A stretch of DNA of 64,000 bases, taken from positions 50,255-114,254 of the forward strand of contig JAFGDV010000012.1 in NCBI GenBank assembly GCA_016931955.1. The letters are read 5' to 3'. The stretch's first letter is position 1. Each line of letters opens with the position of its first letter. The notes under the pieces were generated by a model. The model made no database searches. It was not told the DNA's origin and saw only the letters and a program-made list of their open reading frames with translations. Of the stretch, positions 9,180 through 57,994 are shown piece by piece. The translations under genes were made by a program, and so were the position numbers. This stretch comes from Candidatus Altiarchaeota archaeon. Lineage in GTDB: Archaea > Altiarchaeota > Altiarchaeia > IMC4 > QMZM01.

Positions 9180-9287
9180 CAATCTGACATAGGATACGTG
9201 TTCTACGAGATCGAGCTTGCTCTTACCGCCCCCATGCGGTCGACGAAGGGGATGGAAATAGCCGCAGACCAGGATCTCTAAGAGGAT
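9180..9287 (-). pseudogene. Relic copy 1 of the 3' end of the DPM1-like gene (matches 15624-15751)
   Basis: Minus strand reads PFVDR-(frameshift)-GGKSKLDLVEHVSYVR versus TFIDREGGKSKLNLGEHLSYVR in the intact gene. Confidence 0.85.
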
Positions 9288-9342
9288 AGGGATACAGCCG
9301 CCTGAGACACTAAAAGCCCACCGAAACATCTGATAACGGAGT

Positions 9343-9395
9343 TGTTACTTTCTGGTGTAGCATTTTTAAACATATGTTACGTTATAATGTAACAT
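9343..9395. promoter_or_regulatory. Putative operator: two TGTTAC-N8-GTA(G/A)CA palindromes 32 bp apart
   Basis: tgttactttctggtgtagca at 9343 and tgttacgttataatgtaaca at 9375, abutting the ATG. Confidence 0.6.
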
Positions 9396-10674
9396 GGAAC
9401 TACGTAAATTAGCCGAAGCCAACCCCTGGTGGCAGACCAAAAAAGTACCACAAAACCTCCGAGGACGCGACAGACCCAAATACAGACTACTCCTAAAATC
9501 AATCACACAAAAAGAAGTCACAATAATAACCGGAGTCAGACGCTCAGGAAAAAGCACACTAATGTACCAGACCATAGACAACCTACTCAAAGAAAAAACA
9601 CCCCCAAAACAGATACTATTCGTCAACCTAGAAGACCCAAGACTCACAAACGACACACTAGACGACATATACGAAGCATACAGAAGCGGAATCAACCCCG
9701 ACCAGAAGGCACACATCTTCCTAGACGAAATACACCGAAGAGAAAACTGGGAAAAATGGGTCAAAAGACACTACGACCTCGGCACAGACTGCAAATTCAC
9801 AATCTCAGGATCATGCTCATACCTCCTGAAAAAAGAATACTCAACACTACTCACAGGCAGAAACCTCACCTTCGAAGTATTCCCCCTAAGCTTCCAAGAA
9901 TACCTCACCTTCAAAGGCATCAACTTAGACGCCGAAGCACTGGAAAAAGACATCCTCCTAGAGAAACAGAGACACGAAATCCAGAAGGCGATGAACGAAT
10001 ACATGGAAGAAGGAGGCTTCCCAGACGCGTTCTTCAAAGAAGAAGACTTCAAGAGACTGCTCCTAACACAATACTTCGACGACATAATATACAAAGACAT
10101 CGTAGACCGCCACGAACTAAACAGCCGCAAAACAAGAGACCTTGCACTATACCTCGCATCCAACATCACCTCCCCACTATCCCTCAGAAACATCAGAAAC
10201 ACGCTCGGACTATCCTACGAATCAATAAAAGACTACATCACATACTACGCCGAAGCATTCCTCTTCTTCACAGTCGAACACTTCTCCTACTCCCTCAAAG
10301 AACAGAAGACACGCCCCTCAAAAGCATACTGCATAGACAACGGCCTCCGAAACGCAGTAAGCTTCAAGTTCACAAAAGACGACGGAAAACTAGCCGAAAA
10401 CCTAGCCTACCTCCACCTAAGACAAAACAAAGACGACATATACTACTGGAAAGACAAAAACGAAGTAGACTTCATAACAAAAAACCCCGACCACACACTA
10501 ACCGCCATAAACGTCACATACACAGATGAAGTGGACGAAAGAGAAATAAAGTCGCTCAAAGAATTCAAACAAAAACACAAAAAAACACAAGAACTCATAA
10601 TAATCACAAAAAACACCCAAAAAACACAAGAAGAAATCAAGTACATACCACTATGGAAGTGGCTGCTAGAATAG
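9394..10674 (+). CDS. AAA+ ATPase, AAA_14/DUF4143 family (copy 1)
   Basis: NPWW, GVRRSGKS Walker A, FLDEI Walker B, LTGR, PLSF.EY, GGFP, YCIDNG, EVDF. Confidence 0.9.
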   Translation: MELRKLAEANPWWQTKKVPQNLRGRDRPKYRLLLKSITQKEVTIITGVRRSGKSTLMYQTIDNLLKEKTPPKQILFVNLEDPRLTNDTLDDIYEAYRSGINPDQKAHIFLDEIHRRENWEKWVKRHYDLGTDCKFTISGSCSYLLKKEYSTLLTGRNLTFEVFPLSFQEYLTFKGINLDAEALEKDILLEKQRHEIQKAMNEYMEEGGFPDAFFKEEDFKRLLLTQYFDDIIYKDIVDRHELNSRKTRDLALYLASNITSPLSLRNIRNTLGLSYESIKDYITYYAEAFLFFTVEHFSYSLKEQKTRPSKAYCIDNGLRNAVSFKFTKDDGKLAENLAYLHLRQNKDDIYYWKDKNEVDFITKNPDHTLTAINVTYTDEVDEREIKSLKEFKQKHKKTQELIIITKNTQKTQEEIKYIPLWKWLLE

Positions 10675-10690
10675 AGACTAACCCAGATAC

Positions 10691-10732
10691 TCCGAGGTTT
10701 AATTTACATTTGCCGCCCACGCGGTCGACGAA
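10691..10732 (-). pseudogene. Relic copy 2 of the DPM1-like 3' end (matches 15650-15691)
   Basis: Gapless alignment, 30/42 nt; FVDRVGGKCKLNLG versus FIDREGGKSKLNLG. Confidence 0.75.
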
Positions 10733-10787
10733 TAAACAAAATTTGCCGTTACAAGGGCAAAGTTTTAAAAGAAAATTCACCCACAAA

Positions 10788-10830
10788 TGCAATATTTATG
10801 CATAAATATTGCAATAGACTGCAATATTTA
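10788..10830. promoter_or_regulatory. Putative operator: perfect 26-bp palindrome; TGCAATATTTA repeated 32 bp apart
   Basis: tgcaatatttatgcataaatattgca at 10788-10813; tgcaatattta again at 10820. Confidence 0.65.
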
Positions 10831-10854
10831 AATACAACAACCACTATATATAAC

Positions 10855-12180
10855 ATGGACAAAAACACCCTCAGAGCAACAATAATATCACAAAAAAAAG
10901 AAACAAAAAAAATACTAAAACAAGAAAAAATCATAGAAAGAGAACTACAAAAAGAAACAGAAAAACAACTAAAAAACAACCTCATCAAGATCACCACAGG
11001 CGTCAGAAGATGCGGAAAATCAACCCTCGCCCTACAAACACTCCAAGACAAAGAACACGCCTACATCAACTTCGACGACGAAAGACTCTACAAGATCACG
11101 ACAAAAGACCTCGACACAATCCTAGAAACACTATATGAAGTATACGGAAACTTCAAATACCTCCTCCTAGACGAAATACAGAACATACCTGGATGGGAGC
11201 TATACGCAAACAGACTACAAAGACAAGGCCTCAACCTCATAGTAACCGGAAGCAACGCAAAACTACTAAGCAAAGAACTTGCAACACACCTAACAGGAAG
11301 ACACATCACACTTGAACTATACCCCTTCTCCTTCAGAGAATACCTAAGCTACCACAAAATCAGCCCCCAAAAAGAAGACCTACAAATCGCAGAAGGCATC
11401 GGAAAAATCAAAAAACACCTAAGAGACTACATAGAAAAAGGCGGATTCCCCGAAACATACAAAATCAAAGACAACACAAGATACCTAAAAGACCTCTACA
11501 ACTCCATCATAAACCAAGACATCATAAGCAGATACAACATAAAATACGCAAACACGCTAAGAGAGATAATCTCCTACACCATCTCAAACTACGCAAGCCC
11601 AATAACCTACAAAAAAATAAAAAACATATTCGACATAAAAAGCCAACACACAATAAAAAACTACCTCTACTACGCAGAAGAATCATACCTGATAACCCAG
11701 AGCCTACAATACACACACAAAATAAAAGAACAAACACGACTGCCCAAAAAAATCTACGCCATAGACACAGGCCTCATAAAAGCAATAGGATTCAAGGCAT
11801 CAGAAAACACCGGCAGACTAATGGAAAACCTCATCGCAATAGAACTACAGAGAAAAAAAACACAAAACCCCCTCCTAGAAATATACCACTGGAGAGACTA
11901 CCAAAAAAGAGAAGTCGACTTCGCAGTCAAAGAAGGCCTAAAAGTAAAGGAACTAATCCAGGCATGCTACGACATCGAAGACCCAAAAACAAAGGAGAGG
12001 GAAGAAAAAGCATTGATAAAAGCCGGGAAAGAACTCAGATGCAAAAACCTCAAAATAATAACCTGGGACCACGAAGAAACAGGGAGAATAGAGTATATCC
12101 CACTATGGAAGTGGCTGCTGCAGCCGACGGGTTTTGTCCCGGCGACTGAGGAGAATGTAGTGCCTAACCCAACAAATTAG
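10855..12180 (+). CDS. AAA+ ATPase, AAA_14/DUF4143 family (copy 2)
   Basis: GVRRCGKS, LLDEIQ, TGSNA, LTGR, GGFP, YAIDTG, EVDF; start placed at MDKN because the upstream ATG lies inside the palindrome. Confidence 0.9.
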   Translation: MDKNTLRATIISQKKETKKILKQEKIIERELQKETEKQLKNNLIKITTGVRRCGKSTLALQTLQDKEHAYINFDDERLYKITTKDLDTILETLYEVYGNFKYLLLDEIQNIPGWELYANRLQRQGLNLIVTGSNAKLLSKELATHLTGRHITLELYPFSFREYLSYHKISPQKEDLQIAEGIGKIKKHLRDYIEKGGFPETYKIKDNTRYLKDLYNSIINQDIISRYNIKYANTLREIISYTISNYASPITYKKIKNIFDIKSQHTIKNYLYYAEESYLITQSLQYTHKIKEQTRLPKKIYAIDTGLIKAIGFKASENTGRLMENLIAIELQRKKTQNPLLEIYHWRDYQKREVDFAVKEGLKVKELIQACYDIEDPKTKEREEKALIKAGKELRCKNLKIITWDHEETGRIEYIPLWKWLLQPTGFVPATEENVVPNPTN

Positions 12181-12184
12181 GCAC
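12157..12184. repeat. GTAGTGCCTAAC core with inverted partner (GTGCCTAA-N9-TTAGGCAC)
   Basis: Same 12-mer as at 41622, 51826 and 51927. Confidence 0.7.
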
Positions 12185-12219
12185 CAAACCCAAAAAAAAC
12201 ACCCCGAATAGGGGAAAAC

Positions 12220-13542
12220 CTAAGGCAACCCCAATAAAGAGAAAAGCCACGCCGGAATATAATATATTACTATACTATCTGTTCCCCCTCTCCTCAGCTG
12301 ATTCCTCGTCACCAAAACCGCCTCACCTACACCGTATTTTTCGCAGAATTTAGTTAGGCTACGAATGTCTTTCTTGTTAATGTAGGTCTGATACTTGACT
12401 TCGACAGGCAGCAGCCTTTTGTCCGCTAATACAATATCCACCTCATCCTTCTGCGGCGTACGCCAGAAAGATATCTTCTGCAGACTACCCACTATCTGAG
12501 ACTCTATGAGATGACCTGCTATCCCACCACCTTCAAGCATGCTAAAGGGTTGATCCAATAACGCCAACACAATAGATGGGTGGACTATGAACTGTTTCTT
12601 GCTTGCACGCACCTGCTTAGATACGTTGACAGAGTAGTTGTAGGCCACCTTAATCAGAAAAGATTTCTCTAGTAGGCTTACATACTCTGCCGCCTGATTT
12701 CGGTTAATCCTGAGGTTGCCTGCTATGTTCACCAACTCAAAGAGTTGGGCGTTCGCCGCAGCCAGCAGCCTGAGCAATTCGTAGACCACGTTCTCATTCC
12801 CCCTGCTAGCCCGACTTATGTCTTCGACGGTTTTCTCTATCACCGACTCCCGAATATACTTTTTAATGTATTCTTCGTCGTCTTCGTCAAACAGCTCAGG
12901 GAAGGCGCCCCTCTCCAAGTATTGGATGAACAGTTCCATGTATCTAGCCCTATTCGCAGCGAAATGCAGGTCATATTCTCGTATCATGTTTTCGTTCAAG
13001 GCTATCTCGTCCCTAAGACCAAAGTATCTCACAAACTCCCTGAAGGAAAGTACTGGCAGATGAAAGGATAGTATCCTGCCGGCAAGCGTTTCCCTGTATT
13101 TCCTCAGCTCAAGAGACGATGACCCGGAGACAAAAATCTTCAGGTTCTCTTCGGTGTCATAGACAGTCTTAAGGAGATCAGGGAAGTTAGGAAGCTTCTG
13201 CACCTCGTCGAGGAAAAGATACCTCATACCTTTCCCATCAGAAAACTCCAGAAAGTAGTTGATTAGATCCCATGCCACCTCATACCTCTGGAAGTCTATG
13301 TCGTCGAAGGAGATATAGCAGACGTTCTTTTCTTCGGTCTTCACCAGAAGCTTCTTTATCATCTGCTTGAGTAAGACAGTCTTGCCTACGCGCCGCAGAC
13401 CCACGACTGCCAGAATCTGCCTATTTTGACAGTATTTGAGTAGGTCTCCCATGAGGTCTCTCTCAAACTCTGGAGTAGTGAAGTCTTTTTTCTCCCACCA
13501 CGGGTTCTGCCTGAAAAGCAGTCTACTGTGTCTTTCGTCCAT
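12220..13542 (-). CDS. AAA+ ATPase, AAA_14/DUF4143 family (copy 3)
   Basis: NPWW, GLRRVGKT, FLDEVQ, SGSSS, LAGR, GAFP; EVDIV...PVEVK nuclease-like tail. Confidence 0.9.
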   Translation of the reverse strand: MDERHSRLLFRQNPWWEKKDFTTPEFERDLMGDLLKYCQNRQILAVVGLRRVGKTVLLKQMIKKLLVKTEEKNVCYISFDDIDFQRYEVAWDLINYFLEFSDGKGMRYLFLDEVQKLPNFPDLLKTVYDTEENLKIFVSGSSSLELRKYRETLAGRILSFHLPVLSFREFVRYFGLRDEIALNENMIREYDLHFAANRARYMELFIQYLERGAFPELFDEDDEEYIKKYIRESVIEKTVEDISRASRGNENVVYELLRLLAAANAQLFELVNIAGNLRINRNQAAEYVSLLEKSFLIKVAYNYSVNVSKQVRASKKQFIVHPSIVLALLDQPFSMLEGGGIAGHLIESQIVGSLQKISFWRTPQKDEVDIVLADKRLLPVEVKYQTYINKKDIRSLTKFCEKYGVGEAVLVTRNQLRRGGTDSIVIYYIPAWLFSLLGLP

Positions 13543-13576
13543 CGTATTATCTATTAGGAAGAACATCCTTATAAAG

Positions 13577-13631
13577 TTTATGCACTAAAAACGTGCACAA
13601 AATAAAATTTTATGCACAAAAACTGTGCACA
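13577..13631. promoter_or_regulatory. Putative operator: two TGCAC-N7-GTGCA palindromes 32 bp apart
   Basis: tttatgcactaaaaacgtgcaca at 13577 and tttatgcacaaaaactgtgcaca at 13609. Confidence 0.65.
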
Positions 13632-13670
13632 GAATCTAAAAAGCCACAAGATTAAGAACGACGCTATTGA

Positions 13671-13838
13671 TTATCTCCCCAAAAAACCAGGGAAAGCATT
13701 CAAACACTACGAATAAAAAAAGAACTGGAAAAACTGAAACATATAGTCTACATCACAGAAGAAGAAAAAAACTAAAGGCCGAGCTTGCTCTTACCGCCCC
13801 CATGCGGTCGACGAAGGAGATGGAGATGGCCGCAGACC
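13671..13838. repeat. Duplicated junction: relic of the 83-aa ORF tail plus relic copy 3 of the DPM1-like 3' end
   Basis: 13671-13774 aligns with about 15501-15604; 13780-13838 is 56/59 identical to 9212-9270. Confidence 0.85.
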
Positions 13839-13965
13839 CTCAACTGCCCCAGACCCCTTGCCACAGAATCCTCAGACATTATAAGGTACAGATGACAAAA
13901 AACATAGTATTCCATCAGATACAACCAACAATATTTAAACCCAGAAAACAAAAATAAGATAAAAG

Positions 13966-15348
13966 ATGACAATCATCGACTCCCTGAAAGCCCAAAACGA
14001 ATGGTGGAAGACCGGGAAAGTACCCACAGCACTCCTAAAAAAAACCAAAAGAGAAGAATACAAGACAGCAGAAAAACTCCTCAAAGAAGAAAGAATAACC
14101 GCAATAACCGGACCACGCAGAACCGGAAAAACAACCCTCCAATACCAGCTCATACACCACCTCCTCCAAGAAACCGAACCCAACAAGATACTCTACATAT
14201 CCATGGACGACCCATCACTAAGACCCCACACACAAAACCTCCTACAAGAAATACTGGAAACCTACTACAGAGAAATCCTCCTCGAAGAAAAAAGAAACAC
14301 ACAAGTCCACGTCTTCATAGACGAAATACACTTCCACACAAACTGGGAACAATGGCTGAAAAAATACTACGACCAAAGATACCCAATAAAATTCACGATA
14401 ACAAGCTCATCCTCAGCCCACCTATCACAGAAGTCAAAAGAAAGCCTCGTCGGACGAATCATCGAAATACTACTACTCCCCCTAAGCTTCAGAAGCTACC
14501 TCGCCCTCACAGGAAAAAACCAGCTCACAGAACACTACAACAAACTCAGCCTCGAAACAATAGACGCAGACAAAAGATTCCAGCTGCTAAAACACGAAGA
14601 AGAAGCACGGATCATGTTCTCAAAATACCTCCTATACGGAGGACTGCCCGAGTCCATAAAAACAGGAGAAATACACCTATGGCAGGAAAAACTAATATCA
14701 GACGTCCTAAGAAAAGTTATATACAGAGACATCACAGGACTCTACGACGTCAGAACACCCACAAAACTCGAAGACCTCTTCGTCCACCTCACATACAACA
14801 CCAGCAAAACATTCTCATACACCTCCCTCTCCCAAAACCTCGGCATAAGCACAGAAGCCATAATAAACTACACACGCTACCTCCAGGAATCCTACCTCAT
14901 AGGCGAACTACGACTCCACACAAAAAGCATCGAAAAAAGCCTCCGAGCCAACAGAAAATACTTCATAATGGACTGCGGACTACAGAACGCCATAACAAAA
15001 ACCACCGACCTAACCGAAGCCAACACAGGCCCACTAATAGAATCCACAATCGAAAAACACCTCTACGCATACGCCAAAAAAGAAAACCACAACCTACACT
15101 ACTGGAGAGAAAAAGAAGAAGTAGACATAATACTAGACACCAAAAAAAAGACACTACCAATAGAGGTAAAATACAAAAACAAGATAAAAAAAGAAGACAT
15201 GCGAGGACTACTCAAATTCATGGACAAATACAAAACAGACAAAGGATACATGATAACCAAAGACCTCCTCCAAAAACAAAAAATCAACGGAAAAGAAATC
15301 CAACTAATACCAGCATGGCTATTCCTACTAGCAATACCCGCCGCCTAA
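13966..15348 (+). CDS. AAA+ ATPase, AAA_14/DUF4143 family (copy 4)
   Basis: NEWW, GPRRTGKT, FIDEI, LVGR, GGLP; EVDII...PIEVK. Confidence 0.9.
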   Translation: MTIIDSLKAQNEWWKTGKVPTALLKKTKREEYKTAEKLLKEERITAITGPRRTGKTTLQYQLIHHLLQETEPNKILYISMDDPSLRPHTQNLLQEILETYYREILLEEKRNTQVHVFIDEIHFHTNWEQWLKKYYDQRYPIKFTITSSSSAHLSQKSKESLVGRIIEILLLPLSFRSYLALTGKNQLTEHYNKLSLETIDADKRFQLLKHEEEARIMFSKYLLYGGLPESIKTGEIHLWQEKLISDVLRKVIYRDITGLYDVRTPTKLEDLFVHLTYNTSKTFSYTSLSQNLGISTEAIINYTRYLQESYLIGELRLHTKSIEKSLRANRKYFIMDCGLQNAITKTTDLTEANTGPLIESTIEKHLYAYAKKENHNLHYWREKEEVDIILDTKKKTLPIEVKYKNKIKKEDMRGLLKFMDKYKTDKGYMITKDLLQKQKINGKEIQLIPAWLFLLAIPAA

Positions 15349-15601
15349 AAAAAAAAGACTGAGACAACAGCCTGCTTCTTTCCCGCCTGAACATATAAAA
15401 AGATCACTATTAGCATGATCATGGTTATACAATTCAGAAACCAAGTGACTGAACCCTAAGACCTGAAAGAAATAATAGGAAACAACAACGAATCAGCTTA
15501 TAATCTATCCCCAAAAAAAAACCAGGGAAAGCATTCGAACACTACGAATAAAAAAAGATCCAGGAAAAAACCAGCCTGCATCACAGAAGAAGAAAAAAAA
15601 A

Positions 15602-16318
15602 CTACTTCAGATACAGGCGGAGACAATGCCTGACATAGGATAAGTGTTCTCCGAGATTAAGCTTGCTCTTACCGCCCTCTCGGTCAATGAAAGTGATCGG
15701 GACCTCCTTGACTCGGGAATAGCGGCCGCGAACCAGTATTTCTAAGAGGATCTTGAAGCCGACCGGGTTAAGGACGACGCCGTCAATAACTTCTCTGCGG
15801 AAGAAGAAGAAACCAGAGACCGGATCCCTGACAGAGGTGAGGGGGCGAGCCAAGAGGACAGCACCCCGAGAGGTTAGACGACGACGAAGAGGCCAATTCT
15901 GGATACAACCGCCACGGACATAGCGGCTGCCGACGGAGACATCGGCTTCGCCCCGCAAAATAGGAGCCACCAAAGCAGGAATAGCGTCTAGGGGATGAGA
16001 GAAGTCGGCGTCCATGACGCCAAATATGCCGCCCGAAGCCTGAGAGAAGCCGGCGAGGACGGCAGAGGAAAGACCTAATTTGCCGGAGCGGACGATGATT
16101 TTAAGATCGGGGTAAGGGCTTTGAAGAGAACGGACGACTTCGGCGGAGCCATCTGGGCTGTTGTCGTCTACGATGATCAGTTCACCGCGGAGGTCGTTGC
16201 GGGAAAAAACCTTGAAGAAGGCAGGAATAAGCTTGGATAAGTTCTCGCGTTCATTATAGGTGGGTACGACGACTGAGACCCTGGAGTTCTCCAAGGGAGG
16301 GAAAGAAGTCCTATGCAT
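15602..16318 (-). CDS. Polyprenol-phosphate mannosyltransferase (DPM1-like GT2)
   Basis: PTYNERENL, DDNSPDGS, GLSSA, MDADFSH, GSRY, DPVSGFF, FIDR..G.SK. Confidence 0.9.
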   Translation of the reverse strand: MHRTSFPPLENSRVSVVVPTYNERENLSKLIPAFFKVFSRNDLRGELIIVDDNSPDGSAEVVRSLQSPYPDLKIIVRSGKLGLSSAVLAGFSQASGGIFGVMDADFSHPLDAIPALVAPILRGEADVSVGSRYVRGGCIQNWPLRRRLTSRGAVLLARPLTSVRDPVSGFFFFRREVIDGVVLNPVGFKILLEILVRGRYSRVKEVPITFIDREGGKSKLNLGEHLSYVRHCLRLYLK

Positions 16319-16380
16319 GATAAAGGATATAAACAGATACGGAAATAAATAAGTTTGCTGTTATGAGGTGGGGATAATCT

Positions 16381-16442
16381 ACCCACGGATGCAATAGTTA
16401 TGCATAGATATTGTAATAGACTGCAGTATTTGGATACGATAA
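16381..16442. repeat. Orphan degenerate copy of the AAA copy-2 promoter/operator (10779-10840)
   Basis: acccacggatgcaatagttatgcatagatattgtaatagactgcagtattt versus acccacaaatgcaatatttatgcataaatattgcaatagactgcaatattt. Confidence 0.8.
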
Positions 16443-16479
16443 TAAAAGATCACTGAGGGATAATGGGAGGGGCTGCTAG

Positions 16480-16494
16480 GATAGAGGAGTTGAT
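16480..16494 (+). repeat. Left direct repeat GATAGAGGAGTTGAT flanking the AbiE-like pair (right copy 18428-18442)
   Basis: 15-bp exact match within an imperfect match of about 25 bp. Confidence 0.65.
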
Positions 16495-16562
16495 ACCCCA
16501 GTAGTCGTCGAGGACAAAGGAGAAGAAAGCCCCACGCATTTTACGGAACATACACGGTAATG

Positions 16563-16605
16563 TACTAAAAATAGTAAAAAAAATGATATTTTACTAAAAA
16601 TAGTA
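16563..16605. promoter_or_regulatory. Putative antitoxin operator: TACTAAAAATAGTA twice
   Basis: Identical 14-mers (TACTA-N4-TAGTA) at 16563 and 16592, upstream of the wHTH gene. Confidence 0.6.
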
Positions 16606-16633
16606 TTTATAGGTGAAAAACACATAACATAAC

Positions 16634-17476
16634 ATGCTAGAACTGATCTACGGGACAAAAACAAAGACCAGGATACTGGAAGAGCTCGCAACAGCAGGAA
16701 AACCAAAGACCAGAAAAGAACTAATAGAGCTGACAGGATGCGGCACCAGGGGAGTATACGAGCAGACAGAGGAACTAATAACCCTAGGCATAGTCAAAGA
16801 AACCAAGAAAGGCTGGAAAAAACTAGAGCTAAACCCAGAACACCCACTATACCAGGACATCAAAAACACGGCACTCGCAGCAATAGACTACAAAAAAAAC
16901 CTCATAAAAAACCTCCTCCAGACAATAGACCAAATACTAGAAGACGACTACTATATCGGATTCTACACAGCAGCCACAAAAAAAATCACACCAATCGACT
17001 ACACACCAGAGAAACACGTATACAAGGTACTGGACACAGAATACGAAAAAAAAATAAAGAAAATCAAAACATACGACAAACTAAGGGAAATAGACATACA
17101 AAAAGAGAAAAAAGGGTTGATTAAGGCAGTATTCCTAAAATGCCAGAAAATCCCGGAAGACGTGACAAGAGAAGAAATACAAAACCAGGAAGTGTGGATA
17201 GCAAGCACGGAGAGGGGTATAGTAGAATGCTTCACCCCAGAAAACAAATACTTCACCAGATACGGAAGCTGCCTGGCCCTGCTACAAAACAAAATAGAAA
17301 ACACAATAGACGAAAAACAACTACTGAAAATAGCAGGAGAACTCAACATAAAAAAAGAACTAGTTAAAGTCATGGGCAGCTTCAACCACCACCTCAAAAA
17401 AAGACTATTCAACGCAGAACCCAACACAGAAGAGATCAAAGAAGTCAAACAGGCGATAAACACGGTATTAGGATGA
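16634..17476 (+). CDS. wHTH protein, probable AbiEi-like antitoxin
   Basis: N-terminal HTH-like segment; ASTERGIVEC resembles the AbiEi C-terminal motif; overlaps the start of the AbiEii-like gene. Confidence 0.6.
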   Translation: MLELIYGTKTKTRILEELATAGKPKTRKELIELTGCGTRGVYEQTEELITLGIVKETKKGWKKLELNPEHPLYQDIKNTALAAIDYKKNLIKNLLQTIDQILEDDYYIGFYTAATKKITPIDYTPEKHVYKVLDTEYEKKIKKIKTYDKLREIDIQKEKKGLIKAVFLKCQKIPEDVTREEIQNQEVWIASTERGIVECFTPENKYFTRYGSCLALLQNKIENTIDEKQLLKIAGELNIKKELVKVMGSFNHHLKKRLFNAEPNTEEIKEVKQAINTVLG

Positions 17477-18432
17477 AGACAACATACACGACAGAAGAAA
17501 AAGAAGGGATCCTAGGCATAATAGAAACCTGGGGGAGAGAACAGATAACCCAAGACGTCTTCAGAAAAATACAACTACAGACAGGCATACCTTCAGGACT
17601 GATAGAGACAACATTCTGGCACATAGACACACTCTATCAGCTGAAAAAACTCGAAAAACCACCCATATTCAAAGGAGGAACCTGCGTACAATGCTACATC
17701 CCAGCAGGCCTGCAGAGAGCATCAAACGACCTAGACTTCAATTCAAGGATAGCCAACCCAGCCACCATAAGGGAGCAGATAAAAAAACTAAACAAAAAAC
17801 TGCTAAACAAAGGAAACGCCACACAGATAAAAAAATACGGCGAAAGAATAAGCTATGGAACATTCGACTACCAGCTAAAAGACGAAATATCCGGTGTTAT
17901 AACATTCAACAGGAGAATGCCCTCCCGCCTTGGAGAATACGTCAAAGCAGGCGAACTAGAGGTTCAGGCAAAAAACATGAAAATCCAGGTAAACTACAAA
18001 CACGCCTGGATGCCCGCAATAAAGACGATAGACAAAAAACCAAGATTCTTCATACTCGAACACCAAAAAATGAAAGGATTCACCTACCCAAGCTCAAGCC
18101 TGAACGACCTAATCGCCGACAAAATACTTGCAACAACAAAAGAAACGGGGAGAGAACGATTCAAAGACGTATACGACCTGATGACTCTGTTCATGCAAAA
18201 ATACGAGAAAAAACAGATACTCGAGAAACTGGAGAGGATACTGGAGAAGAAAGGGCAACAACCAGAGACCACGATAAAATCCTCGGCAACGAATATCGGG
18301 AGATTCACAGAAAAAAGCCTCGAAGCACAAGGATTCAAAAGCCTCGTATGCAAAGACGGCAGAAAACTCATAGAAAACTGGGAAACCAACTGCTTAAAGC
18401 TAACAGAGAAGATGAACTCGTTGCTGAGATAG
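17473..18432 (+). CDS. AbiEii/AbiGii-family nucleotidyltransferase toxin
   Basis: FKGGT, RASNDLDF, DKILA and RFKDVYDL motifs. Confidence 0.85.
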   Translation: MKTTYTTEEKEGILGIIETWGREQITQDVFRKIQLQTGIPSGLIETTFWHIDTLYQLKKLEKPPIFKGGTCVQCYIPAGLQRASNDLDFNSRIANPATIREQIKKLNKKLLNKGNATQIKKYGERISYGTFDYQLKDEISGVITFNRRMPSRLGEYVKAGELEVQAKNMKIQVNYKHAWMPAIKTIDKKPRFFILEHQKMKGFTYPSSSLNDLIADKILATTKETGRERFKDVYDLMTLFMQKYEKKQILEKLERILEKKGQQPETTIKSSATNIGRFTEKSLEAQGFKSLVCKDGRKLIENWETNCLKLTEKMNSLLR

Positions 18433-18562
18433 AGGAGTTGATCCCATGGAAGACCCCTTGAGGAGGAGGCTTCTCGATTAATCTTGATTAAAGATCTCAT
18501 GGTATAACCTTTAACTTCAATAGGGAGGTAGGGGTAGGGTGATATGCGTATTTATATACTTA

Positions 18563-18601
18563 TGTTCACTATAGTATACAAAATATGAGGAATTTGTTCA
18601 C
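18563..18601. promoter_or_regulatory. Putative operator: TGTTCAC repeated 32 bp apart
   Basis: tgttcac at 18563 and 18595, downstream of TATA-like tttatata. Confidence 0.5.
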
Positions 18602-18609
18602 CGAATAAG

Positions 18610-19896
18610 ATGGAGCACAGAAAAATCATAATACAATGGAAAGAATACACACCACCGAAGACACAACCCAGAGAAGTGAACATCGACCCCACAACAGACT
18701 TCATCACCACAATAACAGGCCCAAGAAGAGCAGGCAAAACATACCTCTGCTACCAGCTAATGAACCACCTAATAGACAAAGGAACCCCCCGAGAAAACAT
18801 CCTATACGTGAACTTCGAAGACGAAAAACTCATAGGGGCTAAAGCAGCAGACCTCGAAAAACTGATGAACACATTCCAAGAACTAACAGACACCAACCCA
18901 GAACACAACACCTACCTCTTCCTCGACGAAATACAGAACGTCAAAGACTGGGACGCATGGATAAGGAGAATACACGACACCCAAAAAAACGTGAAACTAA
19001 TACTCACAGGCTCATCCTCCAAGATGCTAAGCCGAGAAGTCACAACAAAACTACGCGGCAGAATACTAAACCACGAAGTATACCCCCTAAGCTTCAAAGA
19101 ATACCTCACATGGAAAAACACCCCATACAACCTAAAAACACTAACAGAAAGCAGAGACAGAATCGAAGTAAAAAAACAATACAATGAATACCTGACAAAC
19201 GGAGGCTACCCCACAATAGCACTCAACCAAGCACCCAGAGAACAGATACTCCAAAGCTACTACGAATCAATGATATTCAAGGATGTGGTAGAAAGACACA
19301 ACATCAAAGACGTCAAAAAACTGCGCATACTCGCAAAACTACTATTCGAATCCACATCAAAAGAGATGTCCTACAACAGGCTAGCAAACAAACTCAAATC
19401 CCTCGGATTCACAGCAAGCAAAAACACCATAATAGAACACATCAGCCACTTCGAAGACGCATACCTATTCTTCCAGAACATGAAACACGAGTACTCCATC
19501 ACAAAACGGATGGGTGCGATAAAAAAGATCTACTGCATAGACAACGGACTACTCAACACAGTCAGCTTCAAATTCGCAGAAGACACCGGAAAACTGATGG
19601 AAAACCAAGTCTACATAGAACTAAAACGCAGAAACAAACAAGTCTACTACCACAAAGACAAACACGAATGCGACTTCCTCACACAAGAAAAAAACAAGAT
19701 CACATCAGCCATACAAGTAACCCACACACTAAACGACGAAAACGAAGACCGAGAAATAAACGGCCTACTTGAAGCCATGAGAACCCACAACCTACAAGAT
19801 GGAACCATCCTCACCTTCGAACAAGAAGAGACAAGAAAAAAAGACGACAAAACAATACGGATCACACCAGTCTGGAAGTGGCTGCTGGAGACATGA
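18610..19896 (+). CDS. AAA+ ATPase, AAA_14/DUF4143 family (copy 5)
   Basis: GPRRAGKT, FLDEIQ, TGSSS, LRGR, GGYP, YCIDNG, ECDF. Confidence 0.9.
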   Translation: MEHRKIIIQWKEYTPPKTQPREVNIDPTTDFITTITGPRRAGKTYLCYQLMNHLIDKGTPRENILYVNFEDEKLIGAKAADLEKLMNTFQELTDTNPEHNTYLFLDEIQNVKDWDAWIRRIHDTQKNVKLILTGSSSKMLSREVTTKLRGRILNHEVYPLSFKEYLTWKNTPYNLKTLTESRDRIEVKKQYNEYLTNGGYPTIALNQAPREQILQSYYESMIFKDVVERHNIKDVKKLRILAKLLFESTSKEMSYNRLANKLKSLGFTASKNTIIEHISHFEDAYLFFQNMKHEYSITKRMGAIKKIYCIDNGLLNTVSFKFAEDTGKLMENQVYIELKRRNKQVYYHKDKHECDFLTQEKNKITSAIQVTHTLNDENEDREINGLLEAMRTHNLQDGTILTFEQEETRKKDDKTIRITPVWKWLLET

Positions 19897-19967
19897 GATC
19901 GAAAGAAAAACAGACCAGAGAGTATCTTTGTTGACCAAAATTTATAAATAATGGACAACATAGATGT

Positions 19968-20042
19968 AAAGTGATAACATGGGACCGCGAAGAAAAAGGG
20001 AGAATAGAATACATACCACTATGGAAGTGGCTGCTGGAATAA
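19968..20042 (+). pseudogene. Orphan 3' end of a gene resembling AAA copy 2
   Basis: KVITWDREEKGRIEYIPLWKWLLE* versus KIITWDHEETGRIEYIPLWKWLLQ (12052-12123). Confidence 0.85.
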
Positions 20043-20239
20043 AGAGGTTATTTCATAGATGGCTGCTTGAGGCAGAAAGAGAAGAGCCCAGAAGAGAGCA
20101 AGGTAGTGCCCTGGAAAAGGCAAGATATAAAGGAGGTGAGGGGAAATAGGGGATATAGTAGGGGCTCCGATGAATGCATCCCAACGAGGATAGAGAGAAA
20201 AGCTTTTAATCCCATATCGACAGAATACTTTAAGAGAAG

Positions 20240-20440
20240 ATGAAATGCGCACTGGATAAGGAGGAAGGAATACCAGATAAGAGAAGATGCCCCAAAAAGA
20301 TGCTCAACGGACCATGCGGCGGACAACTAAAGGGAAAATGCGAAGTAAACCCAGGATTAGGGTGCGTGTGGGTGCAGGTATATGAGGAACTCAAGAAGAG
20401 GGGGAAAGAAAAAATACTCAAGGAGCTGTGCATGAGATGA
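20240..20440 (+). CDS. metV: Minimal MetV-like protein (MTHFR C-terminal Cys-rich domain)
   Basis: CPKKMLNGPCGG...GKCEV...CVW; overlaps the start of metF. Confidence 0.75.
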   Translation: MKCALDKEEGIPDKRRCPKKMLNGPCGGQLKGKCEVNPGLGCVWVQVYEELKKRGKEKILKELCMR

Positions 20441-21315
20441 CGCTGAGAAGAGAATTAAAGAAAAAATTCACTTATACGGGAGAACTAGAACCCGGGAAGA
20501 TTTCAGAGTTAAAGGAGATAGTAGAGGAAGCCAGGAAACTGAAGAAGTATGTTACGGCATGTAATGTAACAGACAACCCGCAAGCTTATGCGTACATAAG
20601 CAGCCTGGCGGCGTCGTATATGATACAGGAGAAGGCCGGGATGGAGGCCATATATCAGCTGACTTGCAGAGACAGGAATCGATTAGCGCTGACTTCAGAG
20701 CTGCTGGGGGCGGCGGCGCTGGGGATAAAGAATGTGCTGGCGTTGACTGGAGACTACACTACGTTGGGGGATATGCCTGAGGCGAAGCCTGTATTTGATT
20801 TAGATGCGTGCCGGCTAGTGCATATGATCAAGGAGATGAACGAGGGAAGAGATATAAAGGGGAACCGAATAGAACCTAGGACGGAATTCTTTATCGGAGT
20901 CGCAGCGAACCCCAACGCTATACCATTAGAACCGGAGATACTGAAGCTGGAGAAGAAAGAAAAAGTGGGGGCGGAATTCGTGCAGACTCAGGTAGTGTAT
21001 GAGATGGAGATAGTAGAGAATTTCCTGGAGGCAACGAAGAACGTGGAGATACCGATACTGATCGGGGTGTTCCCGCTGAGATCATACGGGGTAGCGGAGT
21101 ACTTCGACAAGAACGTGCCCGGAGTCAAGGTACCCGAAAAACTGTTGAAGGAACTGAAGGAGATAAAGGAGGCTGGGGGGGCTCGGGAGGAATACGATAA
21201 AGTCAATGAAAGATTCTTTTCCGGACTAATAAAAGGGATAAAGAAGACTGATGCGAGGGGATGCCATATAATGGCGGTGAATTACTCGGAGATTGTGGAG
21301 AAGCTGGTCGTCTAA
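20428..21315 (+). CDS. metF: Methylenetetrahydrofolate reductase
   Basis: NVTDNP, QLTCRDRNR, LALTGD, PVFDLD, GAEFVQTQ, GCHIM. Confidence 0.9.
   Translation: MHEMTLRRELKKKFTYTGELEPGKISELKEIVEEARKLKKYVTACNVTDNPQAYAYISSLAASYMIQEKAGMEAIYQLTCRDRNRLALTSELLGAAALGIKNVLALTGDYTTLGDMPEAKPVFDLDACRLVHMIKEMNEGRDIKGNRIEPRTEFFIGVAANPNAIPLEPEILKLEKKEKVGAEFVQTQVVYEMEIVENFLEATKNVEIPILIGVFPLRSYGVAEYFDKNVPGVKVPEKLLKELKEIKEAGGAREEYDKVNERFFSGLIKGIKKTDARGCHIMAVNYSEIVEKLVV
21260..21308 (+). repeat. metF 3'-end direct repeat, left copy
   Basis: 48/49 identical to 21980-22028. Confidence 0.95.
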
Positions 21316-21653
21316 GTTTTTTCCATAAGGATCTTTTTGATGATGGGTCTGACCACTGGTATGTCCTCCTTCACGACAAGCCACACCCTCTTAGGGTCCA
21401 TCCCAAAGTAGAAATGGATAGCCTTATCCCTCATACCCGCTATATCCCGCCAAGGCACTTCAGGATGCTTATCCTTCACAGGAGAAGGCACGTTTTTTGC
21501 CGCTTCGCCTATGACCTCGACACATCGGATGACGGCTTATTGAGTCTTCTCATCCCCTAAAAACACGTCATAAGACATATCTCTGATGAATTCCTCGGCA
21601 AGCTCCATGTTCTCCAACATATCCTTCAGATAGATTGACACGTTCCTTTTCAT
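21312..21653 (-). pseudogene. HEPN/DUF86 toxin with in-frame stop (absent from the ORF track)
   Basis: MKRNVSIYLKDMLE...KTQ*AVIRCVEVIGEAAKNVP...PW..IAGMRDKAIHFYFG; TAA at 21539-21537. Confidence 0.85.
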
Positions 21654-21943: not shown

Positions 21944-21979
21944 ATTAGGATATTGGACTTAGAAACTATAAGCCAAGGA

Positions 21980-26948: not shown

Positions 26949-26955
26949 CGTTAAA

Positions 26956-41769: not shown

Positions 41770-41773
41770 GGGT

Positions 41774-51825: not shown

Positions 51826-52219
51826 GTAGTGCCTAACTGAGATGGTGTTGATACACAAAAAATCCATTGTGTGTTATCGAGCGCGGCGAAGATAACACCT
51901 TTGATCAACCTTTAGCAAAGGTTCCTGTAGTGCCTAACTATCAATCCTAGATGTATGGTATCAACATACCAATATACCAACATGTTTTTGTATTGCCATA
52001 TCAATATGTTATTCTTAGATACGTCTATGGTGCGGCTAAGCGTAAGCGCATGCCGCACATTTGATCAACCTTTAGCAAAGGTTGTTATAGTGCCTAACGC
52101 GAGGATATGCAAACGTATCAAATGACAAAGTACCCACGTCTATGGATTGTCGAAACTTGCTTTGCAAGTTTCCTTTGGGATGATAACCCTTTTCTAAAGG
52201 GTTATCTGTAGTGCCTAAT
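51826..52219. repeat. Array of four (G/A)TAGTGCCTAA cores, three of them preceded by a double hairpin
   Basis: Cores at 51826, 51927, 52087 and 52208; tttgatcaacctttagcaaaggtt identical at 51900 and 52060. Confidence 0.85.
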
Positions 52220-54529: not shown

Positions 54530-55650
54530 AATCTTACAGGATTGGATTGATTCCAGGCGACGGCATAGGCCCTGAGATCATCGAAGAGGGTAGGAGGGTT
54601 ATTGAAGCCGTTTCCGAGATTGAGGGATTCAAGGTAAAGTGGGATATCTATCCATTCGGGGCAGACCATTATCTTGAGATAAAGGAGTTGTTGCCGGAGG
54701 ACTCTCTTAAAGAGATGAAAAAACTGGATGCCATCTACCTTGGAGCATTGGGTGATCCTCGAGTGAAGCCCGGGATCTTGGAGAAGGGCATTCTCTTGGC
54801 TTTGAGATTCTACTTCGACCAGTTTGTGAATCTTCGACCTATAAAACTCTTGGAGGGGGTAGATTGCCCACTCAAAGACAAGAGACCGGAGGACATAAAT
54901 TTTTTCGTCGTTCGAGAGAACACGGAAGACTTCTATGTCGGCATCGGGGGGCGTGCACCTAGGGGGAGCAGCAGAGAAGTTCTCGAAATCAAGAGGCACC
55001 TATACAACATCAGATTCAACCTCGACATTGAAGCTGACGGGGATGAGATCGCTTACCAGATCGGCGTCCTGAGCAGGAAAGGGACGGAGAGGGTTATCCG
55101 ATACGCCTTCGAATTGGCTAAGAAGAAGGGTAAGACGAGAGTCACCTCAGTCGACAAAGCCAACGTACTCACTCACGCCTATGGCTTCTGGAGGGAGATA
55201 TTTGAGAAAGTTGCAAAAGACTACACTGGAATCGAGACCGAGTTCAGTTTTGTGGACGCCATCACTATGTGGTTCTTGCGCAAACCTGAGTGGTATCAGG
55301 TCGTCGTAGCACCGAACATGTTCGGCGACATAATAACAGATTTGGGGGCCATGATCCAGGGTGGCTTAGGCCTCGCCCCGGGCGGGAACATCAATCCAGG
55401 AGGTGTTTCCATGTTCGAACCAATCCATGGTTCGGCTCCGAAGTATAAGGGCTTGAATACCGCTGATCCGATTGCGACGATCTGGGCTGGGGCGATGATG
55501 CTTGATGAATTGGGTGAAGAAAAAGCTGGGGAAAAAATAGTCTCCGCAATAGAAGCAGTGCTCAAAGAGGGGAAGACTAGAACCAGAGACCTTGGCGGTT
55601 CCTCTAAGACCTCGGAGATGGGCGACGCCATCATTGAAAAACTGAGATGA
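54526..55650 (+). CDS. leuB: 3-isopropylmalate/tartrate dehydrogenase family protein
   Basis: [40 protein letters not shown]. Confidence 0.8.
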
Positions 55651-56600
55651 CAACCAAAGCCTCTGCCCCGGGTAAGGTCATCCTACTGGGTGAGCATGCT
55701 GCAGTCTACGGCAACCCTGTGCTTGTGGCCTCGGTTGCCTTGCGCACCTACGTAAAAATCGATAGGAGAGGCGACGACGAATACACTCTCAACAACAGAT
55801 CTACCAACATAAAGAATCTTAGATTCTCTTTCTCCGATCTTCCCAAACTGAAGAAGGAGTGGGGTACTGTTCTTACTGCCGAATGTATAGACAAAACACT
55901 CCAGAAGCTCGATGAGAAATCAGGTCTCGACATCGAATTGTTTTCCGAGATTCCCGTAGCCTCTGGTATGGGTAGCTCGGCTTCGGCTTCCTCCGCCCTC
56001 TGCTACTCCATAGCGAAGGAACTGGGACATGAACTTGAGAAGAAGGAGATCGCTGATCTGGCGTGGAGCGTCGAGAACATTGTCCACGGCAGATCTTCCG
56101 GCGTTGACCCGTATGCTGTCACATTCGGCGGCGTCTTACGTTACAAAAAAGGCGACTTCGTCCACCTCAAGATCAAAGAATACCCTGAGGTCACAGTAGG
56201 CAATACCGGCGTCAAATCTAATACCCTGGAATCCGTTGGCGACGTAATGAAACTGAAAGAAGCGTATCCGGAATTCTTCGACGATTATCTTTCGGCTATG
56301 AAGCACATCGTAGACTATGGTCAACGGTTTCTGGAAGAAGGCGACTTCAGGAAATTTGGCGAGATCATGAACGTAAACCATGGTTTACTCTCTTCTATAG
56401 GCGTCTCCTCGCCTGAGTTAGAAAGACTGGTCTGGGCTGCACGTAAGGTTTCTCTTGGAGCCAAATTATGCGGCGCCGGCCGCGGCGGAATAATGGTCGC
56501 CCTAGGAGACGCAAGCAAGGAGATAGAGAAAGCAGGCGGCAAAGTCATAAAGACAAAAATCACGGATGACGGAGTGAGAATAGAATCTAACGGGTCGTGA
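55647..56600 (+). CDS. mvk: Mevalonate kinase
   Basis: [43 protein letters not shown]. Confidence 0.92.
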
Positions 56601-56632
56601 CTTCGCATTACCTCATTACTAACTTGATTGCA

Positions 56633-57904
56633 TTAGTCTCCTCCAGAAACTTCTGAATAACACACGTCTCTTGTGGTGTTTTCTTTGATGAAGTCACAGA
56701 TTGTAGCATTGGCTAAATCGACTGCGATTTTTTTGTAGCAGTAATCTTTTAATCCCATGATCTCGTGGACATTTTCACAGAGCCTGGGGTCGGGATTTGA
56801 TTTAAGCAATGACCAGATGCATCTTTCGTTCCATGCAGGGTTTGTCATCGACCCACATATTGATGGATTGTTTGTCTTTCTCGCAACGGCCATTCTGCAC
56901 ATGTAATTTTCCTCGTAACCAGAAACTGAATTACATATCCTTAATTCCCCTAGTTTTCCAGCTAGATCTATGAGACAGTAGGTCTTCTCTCTTGTATCGT
57001 TGATTTTATTGCAGATTGCTGGGTCTCCCTTTTTCATAGCCACATAACGGTAGCAACCTTCTTTGGAGAAGTTGACACTTTCTTGTATCTTCTCACATAT
57101 TTTTGAGTTTTCTGTAACATTAACAATAGTATGGTAGCACAAGTTTCTATATTCCAGGTCTTGTATTTTTTCGCAGATGCTAGCGTCTTGTTTGGCTACT
57201 GCTATGTCTGTGTAGCAGTTTATGATTCTTGCTTCGCTGACCTCTGAGCCCGCACATAATGGGCACAGGGAGGTGTTCTGTGTTGCTACGGCGACTTCAC
57301 AGTAGCAGGAAGCTTGTTGATCCTGATAGTGCCGAAACATGGATGTGCCTGTCGTCCCGCTGGGCGCTGGAGGTGCCTCCAGTTTCTTGCATAATTCCAG
57401 GTTTTTCTGTTCTTTAGCCAGCTTTATGTAGCATTCGTTTTTCTGGTACGATCCCTCAATTCCATCACATTCTGTCGTTGTCGTGGTTGTAGTAGTGTTT
57501 CTCAGCACACTCTCAACCCGTTCTTTGCACTGAGGATGGAAGAATGTGCTATAACCCAGATCCCTGTCACATATGGAAGGATCCTTAAGTGCATATGCTA
57601 CCTCAGTGAAACAATAAAAACGACCATGACCAGACATTTCATAGTCTCCGATCAATTCACATAAATCCGGATCTAAGAACCTGACTGCCACAGCTGAGAT
57701 ACTGCCTACGCTGTCTCCGCTGAGGGAGTCGAACTTTAGCCCCGTATAGCAAGCAAACCTCTCACTCAGGTTTTCGATACCAGAACATATTGATGCATTG
57801 AGGGTTGCTTTTGTCGTTGTTGTCGTCGTCTCTTCAACGGTTTCCTCCACGCACCCGCCCCACAGGGTCAGCAATATCGTCACTACTGCCATAACCTTTC
57901 TCAT
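56633..57904 (-). CDS. Cys-rich repeat lipoprotein/surface protein
   Basis: LWGGC lipobox-like segment, poly-Thr linkers, repeated C..I......CY..(I/V)A. Confidence 0.7.
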   Translation of the reverse strand: MRKVMAVVTILLTLWGGCVEETVEETTTTTTKATLNASICSGIENLSERFACYTGLKFDSLSGDSVGSISAVAVRFLDPDLCELIGDYEMSGHGRFYCFTEVAYALKDPSICDRDLGYSTFFHPQCKERVESVLRNTTTTTTTTECDGIEGSYQKNECYIKLAKEQKNLELCKKLEAPPAPSGTTGTSMFRHYQDQQASCYCEVAVATQNTSLCPLCAGSEVSEARIINCYTDIAVAKQDASICEKIQDLEYRNLCYHTIVNVTENSKICEKIQESVNFSKEGCYRYVAMKKGDPAICNKINDTREKTYCLIDLAGKLGELRICNSVSGYEENYMCRMAVARKTNNPSICGSMTNPAWNERCIWSLLKSNPDPRLCENVHEIMGLKDYCYKKIAVDLANATICDFIKENTTRDVCYSEVSGGD

Positions 57905-57943
57905 GTTAGACTATTGGATGAAAAAGAGATAAAACCGCTTCGA

Positions 57944-57994
57944 AAAATCATAAAGACGAAGATAACGAACGGAGGAGTGAGGATAGAAACTTAG
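57944..57994 (+). pseudogene. Orphan diverged copy of the mvk 3' end
   Basis: KIIKTKITNGGVRIET* versus [16 protein letters not shown] (56541-56588); gapless, 38/48 nt. Confidence 0.85.

Follow-up and report, generated by a model that had tools for sequence, protein, structure and literature searches.

Duplicated host-gene tails around small accessory cassettes in an Altiarchaeota archaeon

We describe an arrangement that recurs in a 64,000-nucleotide (nt) stretch of the genome of a Candidatus Altiarchaeota archaeon (assembly GCA_016931955.1, contig JAFGDV010000012.1, positions 50,255 to 114,254; hereafter the window), in which a small cassette of accessory genes lies directly behind a host gene and is followed by an orphan copy of that gene's tail. 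The architecture itself, its frequency, the cargo of the cassettes, the absence of recombinase genes from these sites and a mixed pattern of divergence between the tail copies are observed directly. On balance, we consider these arrangements to be scars, probably left where small cassettes, most of them selfish, were inserted at host-gene ends independently of a recombinase.

Gene tails, cassettes and orphan copies

The first-pass annotation of the window had reported the order gene tail, cassette, orphan tail at three unrelated host genes, a GT2 glycosyltransferase gene ('DPM1-like'), metF (MTHFR) and mvk (mevalonate kinase), and had suggested that the host gene stays intact while its C-terminus is swapped. 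The order is present at all three, each orphan has its own in-frame stop (Table 1), and each of the three genes faces a convergent neighbour. For metF, the working tail and the orphan (21976-22028) agree at 51 of 53 bases, where a repeat of 49 bp with one mismatch had been given, and they enclose an insert of 660 nt; the convergent mch gene (22158-23006, minus strand) lies beyond the orphan. The working gene ends ...KLVV and the orphan ...KLV. The insert carries an intact MNT antitoxin gene together with the remains of its partner, broken into two reading frames of 38 and 59 amino acids (aa), whose 3' end overlaps the new end of metF; the partner matches no Pfam family and, on our reading of the two translations, looks HepT-like. 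For mvk, 38 of 48 bases are identical between the working tail and the orphan (57944-57991), exactly the ten mismatches first counted. Here the working gene ends RIESNGS, three residues longer than the orphan's RIET, and it is the orphan whose length matches the mvk C-terminus in 6 of 7 relatives. The host genes are thus intact, with only the extreme C-terminus altered. The 423-aa protein of the mvk cassette has just 7 distant homologues besides itself, all at 30% identity or less.

At the GT2 gene, four AAA_14-DUF4143 ATPase genes stand between the repeat units. Three relics had been listed here; there are indeed three copies of the tail, but only two are orphans, the third being the gene's own. 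The distal orphan, relic A, is 85% identical to the gene's tail over 102 nt, with 22 gap nt, while relic B, which reads ...GGKSKLGL before its stop, shares 95% identity with relic A across 59 nt. The repeated unit also exceeds the tail: the ~85 nt past the GT2 stop (flank F_G) recur at 91% identity beside relic B (flank F_B), and the last ~140 nt of the small open reading frame (ORF) beyond relic A (F_A) are a distant homologue of both flanks, 79% identical to F_B and 74% to F_G, with 14-16 gap nt. The middle unit is chimeric, its tail part being 95% like the distal relic A and its flank part 91% like the gene-proximal flank, whereas between the distal and proximal flanks the identity is only 74%.

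The studied genome (labelled G000) is a 1.55-Mb metagenome bin of 46 contigs, 92% complete, in which the window is C23:50255-114254. It holds about ten cassette-bearing loci with this architecture, whose orphans carry in-frame stops, and toxin-antitoxin, Abi or ATPase genes are found at 9 of 10 of them. Of the matches to PF01909 (MNT) in this genome, 8 of 12 lie in or beside such cassettes, the other four not having been looked at, and all six strong AAA_14 matches on C23 lie inside arrays, a count that excludes three on C11 and C46. At four further places (C4, C13, C17 and C37) the architecture is the same and the inserts measure only 47-100 nt.

Read in the orientation of the gene, the relics behind a 696-aa beta-propeller gene separate, in turn, a HepT/MNT pair, a 779-nt tandem copy of the HepT/MNT unit, a lone MNT gene, and an MNT-HEPN pair with HicAB, and the left boundaries of the repeats vary (-91, -91, -48 and -46). 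Relic H3 ends ...TTAGGGTTTAAATAC, continuing into the oldest cassette, and relic H2 ends ...CCTAGGTTTAATAC, after which the next cassette begins, implying that H2 copied the end of the gene joined to the 12-14 nt with which the older insert begins, a junction found only in this array; nested relics H2 and H3 both carry those initial nt. The relics are also ordered, reading from the farthest relic to the working tail CCGAG..GAAGG, CCGAG..GACGG and CAAGG..GACGG. At an AbiEii gene, a 100-nt repeat encloses a ParE-type pair; its first 72 nt are identical and all 5 mismatches fall in its last 28 nt, and the proximal repeat runs seamlessly into the insert, whose start is a relic of another gene's tail.

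The same architecture recurs in a relative (labelled G026), a complete single-contig genome of 1.39 Mb with 1302 genes, from the same order and another family. At the nucleotide level it has 27 pairs of tail and orphan, of which three were dropped later as paralogue or internal repeats. The inserts range from 7 nt to ~6 kb; short ones are rich in dispersed hairpin repeats, and near-tandem duplications with tiny spacers include a triple 125-nt array. Long ones carry HEPN, MNT/HepT, RhuM, two AAA_14-DUF4143 ATPases and small unnamed ORFs, one pair of which looks RelE-type on inspection. A hairpin-rich element resembling a miniature inverted-repeat transposable element is present in two full copies (L049 and L076, C1 of the relative, 198538-198639 and 738635-738847), with shared 5' and 3' ends and different interiors, and each copy is flanked by copies of its own local gene tail, of 134 nt and 88 nt respectively. 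Pieces of this element recur at dozens of intergenic places. One set of cassette families (MNT/HEPN, AAA_14 ATPase and AbiE) is bracketed by the tails of many unrelated host genes in the two genomes. As a possible source of the short inserts we considered templated copying of other loci; many hold dispersed 25-70-nt hairpin repeats, and no clear donor locus was found.

How common is the arrangement? For each protein, windows of 16 residues taken within the final 32 were compared, by ungapped BLOSUM62 scoring, with the 10 kb downstream on the same strand; a match was called an orphan only if nothing within 1.5 kb matched the remainder of the protein. Among 1492 crude ORF calls in the studied genome, 12 genes have orphan tails downstream, with 17 matches, whereas the five control geometries give 3 each for the tail upstream, the head downstream and the mid-gene part upstream, 9 for the head upstream and 2 for the mid-gene part downstream. 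A genome-wide search of the kind proposed in the first-pass annotation thus yields a count above the genome's own controls; the mirror case, an orphan head upstream, occurs but is rarer. At the nucleotide level, the 91 isolated short direct repeats found within 10 kb include 11 of the kind 'tail then orphan downstream', one of them a head duplication and one a paralogue's tail, and 2 in which the tail has its copy upstream. In the relative, orphan tails stand downstream of 25 of 1302 genes, against 2-9 matches in the five control geometries; two of the candidates, at 292876 and 1079052, are paralogue fragments. These two and three others (1005118, C2:7370 and C23:60896) were left out before boundaries, motifs and codons were counted. 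Two unrelated archaea served as controls, both partial and of other composition: 2 of 640 genes, one of them clean, on a 740-kb Methanomassiliicoccales contig, and 1 of 368, not clean, in the first 400 kb of a Halorutilales chromosome. A frequency no higher than in control archaeal genomes, which had been named as grounds for rejection, is not what the pooled Altiarchaeales counts show (37/2794 against 3/1008, odds ratio 4.5, Fisher p=0.0037), nor those of the relative alone (p=0.0003). The pattern is commoner in the two Altiarchaeales genomes than in the two controls, and is not exclusive to the order.

Table 1. Positions and contents of the features discussed, in window coordinates unless a contig or genome is named
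Feature	Position	Strand	Remarks
Small ORF, 83 aa	8922-9173	+	No Pfam family; convergent with GT2 locus
Orphan GT2 tail, relic A	9184-9282	-	In frame, reads ...GGKSKLDLVEHVSYVRLYASLFS then stop
GT2 cassette 1	9394-13566	+, +, -	Three AAA_14-DUF4143 ATPase genes (Pfam): 9394-10674 (+), 10798-12180 (+), 12220-13566 (-)
Middle GT2 repeat unit	13681-13838	-	Flank copy F_B 13681-13771; orphan tail relic B 13780-13838
GT2 cassette 2	13966-15348	+	AAA_14-DUF4143 ATPase (Pfam)
GT2 glycosyltransferase gene	15602-16318	-	Current tail; downstream flank F_G 15516-15599
Orphan copy of ATPase gene upstream/5' region	16373-16442	+	81% identical to that of the gene at 10798; precedes AbiE cassette
AbiE cassette	16474-18445	+	AbiEi-like 16634-17476; AbiEii 17473-18432
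ATPase gene and orphan ATPase tail	18610-20036	+	AAA_14-DUF4143 ATPase 18610-19896; 72-nt gap; orphan tail 19968-20036
metF (MTHFR)	20428-21315	+	Repeated tail 21256-21308; last codon and stop insert-derived
metF cassette	21312-21943	-	MNT antitoxin gene 21650-21943 intact; HepT-like partner in pieces 21537-21653 and 21312-21491
Orphan metF tail	21976-22032	+	Own stop TAG 22030-22032
mvk (mevalonate kinase)	55647-56600	+	Repeated tail 56541-56588; last 3 residues NGS and stop beyond repeat
mvk cassette	56633-57904	-	423-aa protein; no Pfam family
Orphan mvk tail	57944-57994	+	Reads KIIKTKITNGGVRIET then stop; TAG at 57992-57994
696-aa beta-propeller gene	C23:15514-17604	-	Just upstream of window; four tail relics after it
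AbiEii gene with 100-nt repeat	G000		Encloses ParE-type pair
354-aa beta-helix gene	G000		Two relics around ATPase, MNT-HEPN and AbiE pair
C24 site	G000		AbiE pair
C38 site	G000		MazE-like
C39 site	G000		MNT/HepT
C40 site	G000		HicB, MazE-PIN

Origin of the duplicated tails

No dedicated enzyme is apparent for these sites. The studied genome has a single PF00589 match, at C38:51698, which lies 47 kb from the nearest site, so that there is no integrase at any of them and the cognate integrases that had been named as a possible refutation are missing; the relative has two PF00589 matches. By their number and size, these few genes would be housekeeping enzymes of Xer type. Neither genome has a match to Cas1, RVT_1 or TnpB, the window contains no tRNA gene, and Pfam scans of the cassette ORFs detected no recombinase, transposase or mobility family, the DDE and serine recombinase families not having been searched. 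The targets had been said to share no obvious sequence, and indeed the 34 duplicated stretches compared from the two genomes (36-276 nt) have no 6- to 8-mer in excess of shuffled controls and no boundary consensus. The cassettes of the studied genome likewise lack common nucleotide similarity or shared ends, apart from the one tandem copy, and no transposon-like termini were found among them. The lack of a recombinase and of a motif, together with the variable boundaries, argues against integrons, diversity-generating retroelements, casposons and self-encoded site-specific integration. An integron would have IntI beside its arrays, and the only PF00589 match lies elsewhere; the repeats, compared by sequence and not by folding, have no 7-mer in common. 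A diversity-generating retroelement fits neither the absence of RVT_1 from both genomes nor differences that affect all bases and fall mostly at third codon positions. A site-specific integrative element or casposon is at odds with the lack of a recombinase in any cassette, the lack of a common att core and boundaries that vary at one gene.

Which process, then, could have left these scars? Duplication of the target upon insertion is favoured by the local junction copied into relic H2, by the order of the relics in that array, by the hairpin element of the relative, by inserts of only 7-69 nt, and by the presence of the same cassette families at many unrelated genes. Insertion of this kind would leave the inserted DNA between two direct copies, 24-276 bp long, of its target. 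If that target includes a stop codon, the copy next to the gene would remain in use as the working tail, sometimes reading a few codons into the insert, and the distal copy, with the old stop, would be left behind as an orphan tail. Survivors would be expected to cluster at 3' ends, especially between convergent genes, presumably since insertion elsewhere would not leave the host gene whole. The duplication could be made by a staggered break with fill-in, or by template switching during break repair. The repeated tails would then feed the homologous recombination of the host, giving rise to tandem amplification and chimeric units, and a cassette with one tail copy probably moves between related cells, perhaps by way of a circular intermediate, importing a silently different tail allele. 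That the repeats recombine is shown by the 779-nt tandem copy of cassette plus tail behind the 696-aa gene.

The tail copies have diverged to very different extents (79-100% identity), in keeping with an initial description of events from recent to old. Between working tails and orphans there are 147 mismatches in coding sequence, with 40, 28 and 79 at codon positions 1, 2 and 3; the third-position share of 54% exceeds one third (p=3e-7). Of the 116 codons that differ, 58 are synonymous, and premature stops are absent from all the orphans. At six sites taken together there are 26 synonymous against 2 non-synonymous differing codons, and at others the balance is reversed (for example, 4 against 14).

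Several of these observations weigh against duplication on insertion. The synonymous fraction, 58/116, is higher than the ~38-44% that we roughly estimate for duplication in situ followed by drift of the orphan, and many tails may therefore have come from outside from the start. The block of mismatches in the AbiEii/ParE repeat and the seamless joint between repeat and insert fit a homologous crossover better than a target duplication. The frequency in the studied genome, taken alone, is not significantly above that of the controls (p=0.12), and the controls are few, partial and of other composition, with crude gene calls. Finally, an empty site was not found, and the target duplication thus lacks direct demonstration: the nearest GTDB representatives reach only 64% (metF) and 69% (mvk) protein identity, the best among metagenome contigs with metF is 60%, and among public runs the DNA is present only in the probable source sample, one sister run holding next to none.

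The alternative that draws most on these points had been put forward in the first-pass annotation as single-crossover integration of small circles. Circles consisting of a cassette and one tail copy would integrate, as the main route, by a Campbell-type crossover within ~50-150 bp of tail homology, swapping the C-terminus and leaving the resident tail as the orphan. The silent divergence is readily accommodated, above all at the six sites and in the excess of third-position mismatches, as are the canonical length of the orphan mvk tail beside a longer working tail, the chimeric middle unit at the GT2 gene (which gene conversion could also explain), the abrupt change from identity to divergence in the AbiEii/ParE repeat with its continuous proximal joint, and the lack of an integrase at the sites. 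For comparable bacterial units, Furuta, Abe & Kobayashi (2010, NAR 38:2428; PMC2853133) have also hypothesised a life cycle in which a unit invades, is amplified by way of its repeats and is then released. Such a crossover, however, cannot build the first tail-cassette-tail unit at a new gene, and the same cassette families are bracketed by many unrelated gene tails in two genomes. Homologues of one cassette protein of the relative, present in 4 of 48 genomes of the order, do not lie beside the host-gene orthologue in any of the 3 other genomes. Inserts of 7-69 nt would demand circles of 100-250 bp, and the nested relics copy composite junctions specific to their lineage; both of these call for duplication on insertion. 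As the main route, we therefore regard circle integration as unlikely.

Evidence of the insertion type and evidence of the exchange type together lead to a picture in two stages, in which insertion would duplicate the local target and homologous recombination would then act on the repeats. The single-crossover model is a fair description of the second stage, that of spread and turnover, and not of the origin. It is possible, though we hold this only tentatively, that the Altiarchaeales run an integrase-free cassette shuttle, in which a toxin-antitoxin or ATPase cassette, once flanked by a copy of a host gene's tail, would loop out as a circle with one tail copy, be transferred to a related cell and re-enter that same gene through a single homologous crossover within its final 50-150 bp.

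Action in trans by a site-specific recombinase, with the orphan tails as relics of attL/attR type and the cassettes as non-autonomous or decayed elements, is improbable. Archaeal elements do enter protein genes at their 3'-distal portions (14 of 68, Thaumarchaeota), where they can replace the stop and can stack, according to the portion of the survey by Krupovic et al. (2019, PMC6563490) drawn on here, and the studied genome and its relative have one and two tyrosine recombinase genes. Against this stand 34 repeats with no common core or motif, the four differing boundaries behind the single 696-aa gene, repeat lengths of 24-276 nt, and the fact that no cassette has a recombinase gene while the few PF00589 genes appear to be of Xer type.

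More improbable still is that two unlinked processes are involved, with tails duplicated locally by slippage or unequal crossing-over at hairpin-rich terminators and cassettes landing later in the harmless gap. Near-tandem tail duplications with tiny spacers do occur in both genomes (the four short-insert sites in the studied genome and several in the relative), and a palindromic motif abuts the orphan at three of the four, but these gaps make up a minute share of the non-coding DNA and yet hold two-thirds of the MNT matches and most strong AAA_14 matches, and the boundaries of cassette and repeat coincide at every locus.

Independent k=31 contigs (Logan) come from the only public run with this DNA, probably that of the source sample. 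Their depth across 8800-22300 is even (38-43). Interrupted at shared repeats and nowhere else, they contain no joint that skips a cassette and, as they do not bridge the repeats, cannot prove or disprove how the pieces are ordered. Chimeric joining of strains is scarcely credible: although the genome is a bin of many contigs and the k=31 assembly breaks at the metF repeat, with its identical core of 40 nt, the repeats at mvk and GT2 differ too much (79-85%) to mislead an assembler, cassettes and flanks have equal depth (~40), the pattern is commoner in the single-contig relative, and a chimeric path would itself need a real junction of cassette end and orphan start.

Other features of the window and its genome

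The window otherwise has the gene content of an archaeal chromosome: Pfam scans of its 61 ORFs identified glycosyltransferases, CODH/ACS subunits, MCH, MTHFR, mevalonate-pathway genes, TFB, GINS and RadA-like genes. The CTP synthase encoded here has 66-75% identity to proteins from metagenome-assembled genomes of Candidatus Altiarchaeales or Altiarchaeota. Two ORFs that match CdhD (24565-26238 and 25938-27035, minus strand) overlap by ~300 nt, which may reflect a frameshift or else neighbouring gamma and delta subunits of CODH/ACS for which an over-long start was called. The GT2 gene finds its best matches, at 51-61% identity, in other families of the order (f7 and f4), whereas genomes of its own family reach only 45%, which suggests that the gene itself may have been acquired or swapped inside a variable glycosylation cluster.

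Between the GT2 and metF loci, an AbiE pair had been described as bracketed by a 15-bp repeat. The bracket exists, as a direct repeat of 24 nt with 21 of 24 bases identical (16474-16497 and 18422-18445), a length below the 30-bp criterion for long target duplication. Fragments of ATPase genes lie on either side of this pair. The orphan ATPase tail shares 88% identity with that of the paralogue at 10798-12180, and its presence, together with that of the orphan upstream copy of the same gene, indicates that ATPase cassettes have themselves been displaced or replaced.

A palindromic motif, TTGATCAAC-CTTT..AAAG-GTTG, occurs ~15 times in the genome, nearly always between genes, with copies in the window at 41452-41494, 51896-51938 and 52056-52098. 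It stands directly before the orphan tail at C4, C13 and C17, and a similar element precedes orphan copies in the relative. It adjoins a tRNA called by ARAGORN at 1 of 13 places checked, and may act as a terminator, a promoter or a break-prone site. Two surface-type proteins of the studied genome (C23:24833-25897 and C21:23455-24045) have similar hydrophobic-basic tails, ..PGIAYLITRKR and ..PGMIYLIRKRE, that resemble sorting signals; a gene neighbouring the one on C21 shares this tail, so that shared anchor modules may account for some of the 'orphan tails' in proteins of this type.

Relation to known systems and meaning for the lineage

Is this an undescribed mode of gene traffic, as was first suggested? 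Nobusato et al. (2000; Gene 259:99) are reportedly an earlier source on insertion with long target duplication. The footprint seen here already has a published description under exactly that name, based on restriction-modification units of bacteria, and the suggestion therefore does not hold (PMC2853133). In the part of that paper drawn on here, the repeats are from 45 to more than 400 bp long and often span a start or stop codon, so that the target gene stays intact; no archaeal case passed the screen, and the mechanism was left open, with a double-strand break suggested. Our loci resemble those in having a selfish unit of the post-segregational-killing type, no other mobile element, long and variable target repeats, and the possibility of tandem amplification, and their repeats exceed the 30 bp asked for there (36-276 nt in 34 pairs; 53 nt at metF, 48 at mvk and 59-102 at the GT2 gene). 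They differ in that the cargo consists of toxin-antitoxin or Abi pairs and AAA_14-DUF4143 ATPases and not restriction-modification units, that the host is an archaeon, that there are ~10-25 loci per 1.4-1.5 Mb with arrays of up to four cassettes, and that many repeat pairs differ silently, hinting at imported tail alleles. Cargo, archaeal host, density and stacked arrays are new relative to the published account as cited here.

Likenesses to other systems are more partial. Like the archaeal integrated elements surveyed by Krupovic et al. (PMC6563490), these cassettes have the gene tail duplicated as direct repeats, a stop that is sometimes element-derived and arrays built by re-use of a site. 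As described in the portion cited, however, the integrated elements run to kilobases, encode an integrase or casposase, and have defined att or target-duplication sites, mostly of 13-69 bp; here there is no recombinase and no core, the inserts measure 0.06-4.5 kb, and the boundaries vary. In Rhs and contact-dependent inhibition (CDI) loci and in the effector loci of the type VI secretion system (PMC3150448, PMC5361080, in the sections cited), incoming DNA that recombines through a conserved gene end likewise displaces the former end downstream, generating orphan arrays with no dedicated recombinase. In those loci a toxin tip is displaced along with its immunity gene, the toxin itself being the host gene, whereas the host genes described here are unrelated housekeeping or surface-protein genes, and only the last 10-50 codons are displaced. 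Integron arrays, too, are built from accessory cassettes that are small and poor in promoters and that in many cases encode toxin-antitoxin pairs; a repeated element stands between the cassettes, and the arrays lie next to a fixed chromosomal point. Ours have no IntI beside them, and their repeats are copies of local gene tails with no conserved core rather than attC hairpins, folding not having been compared.

How toxin-antitoxin and other small defence-type cassettes move without a transposase or integrase is poorly understood. In this lineage the same scar marks nearly every such cassette of a genome (8 of the 12 MNT matches, the other four not having been looked at) and is seen again in another family of the order, and the states through which the host-gene tail has passed are preserved one after another in stacked arrays. 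The lineage is therefore a good natural system for two questions, namely the mechanism behind 'insertion with long target duplication' and the use of the repeats as homology handles for horizontal spread. Orphan tails offer a cheap annotation marker for recently inserted accessory DNA in uncultured archaea, and they carry a warning for annotation, since the extreme C-terminus of a conserved enzyme may be derived from an insert. If the cassette shuttle is real, gene tails would serve as private attachment sites, and arrays would grow in the manner of integrons through the recombination machinery of the host alone.

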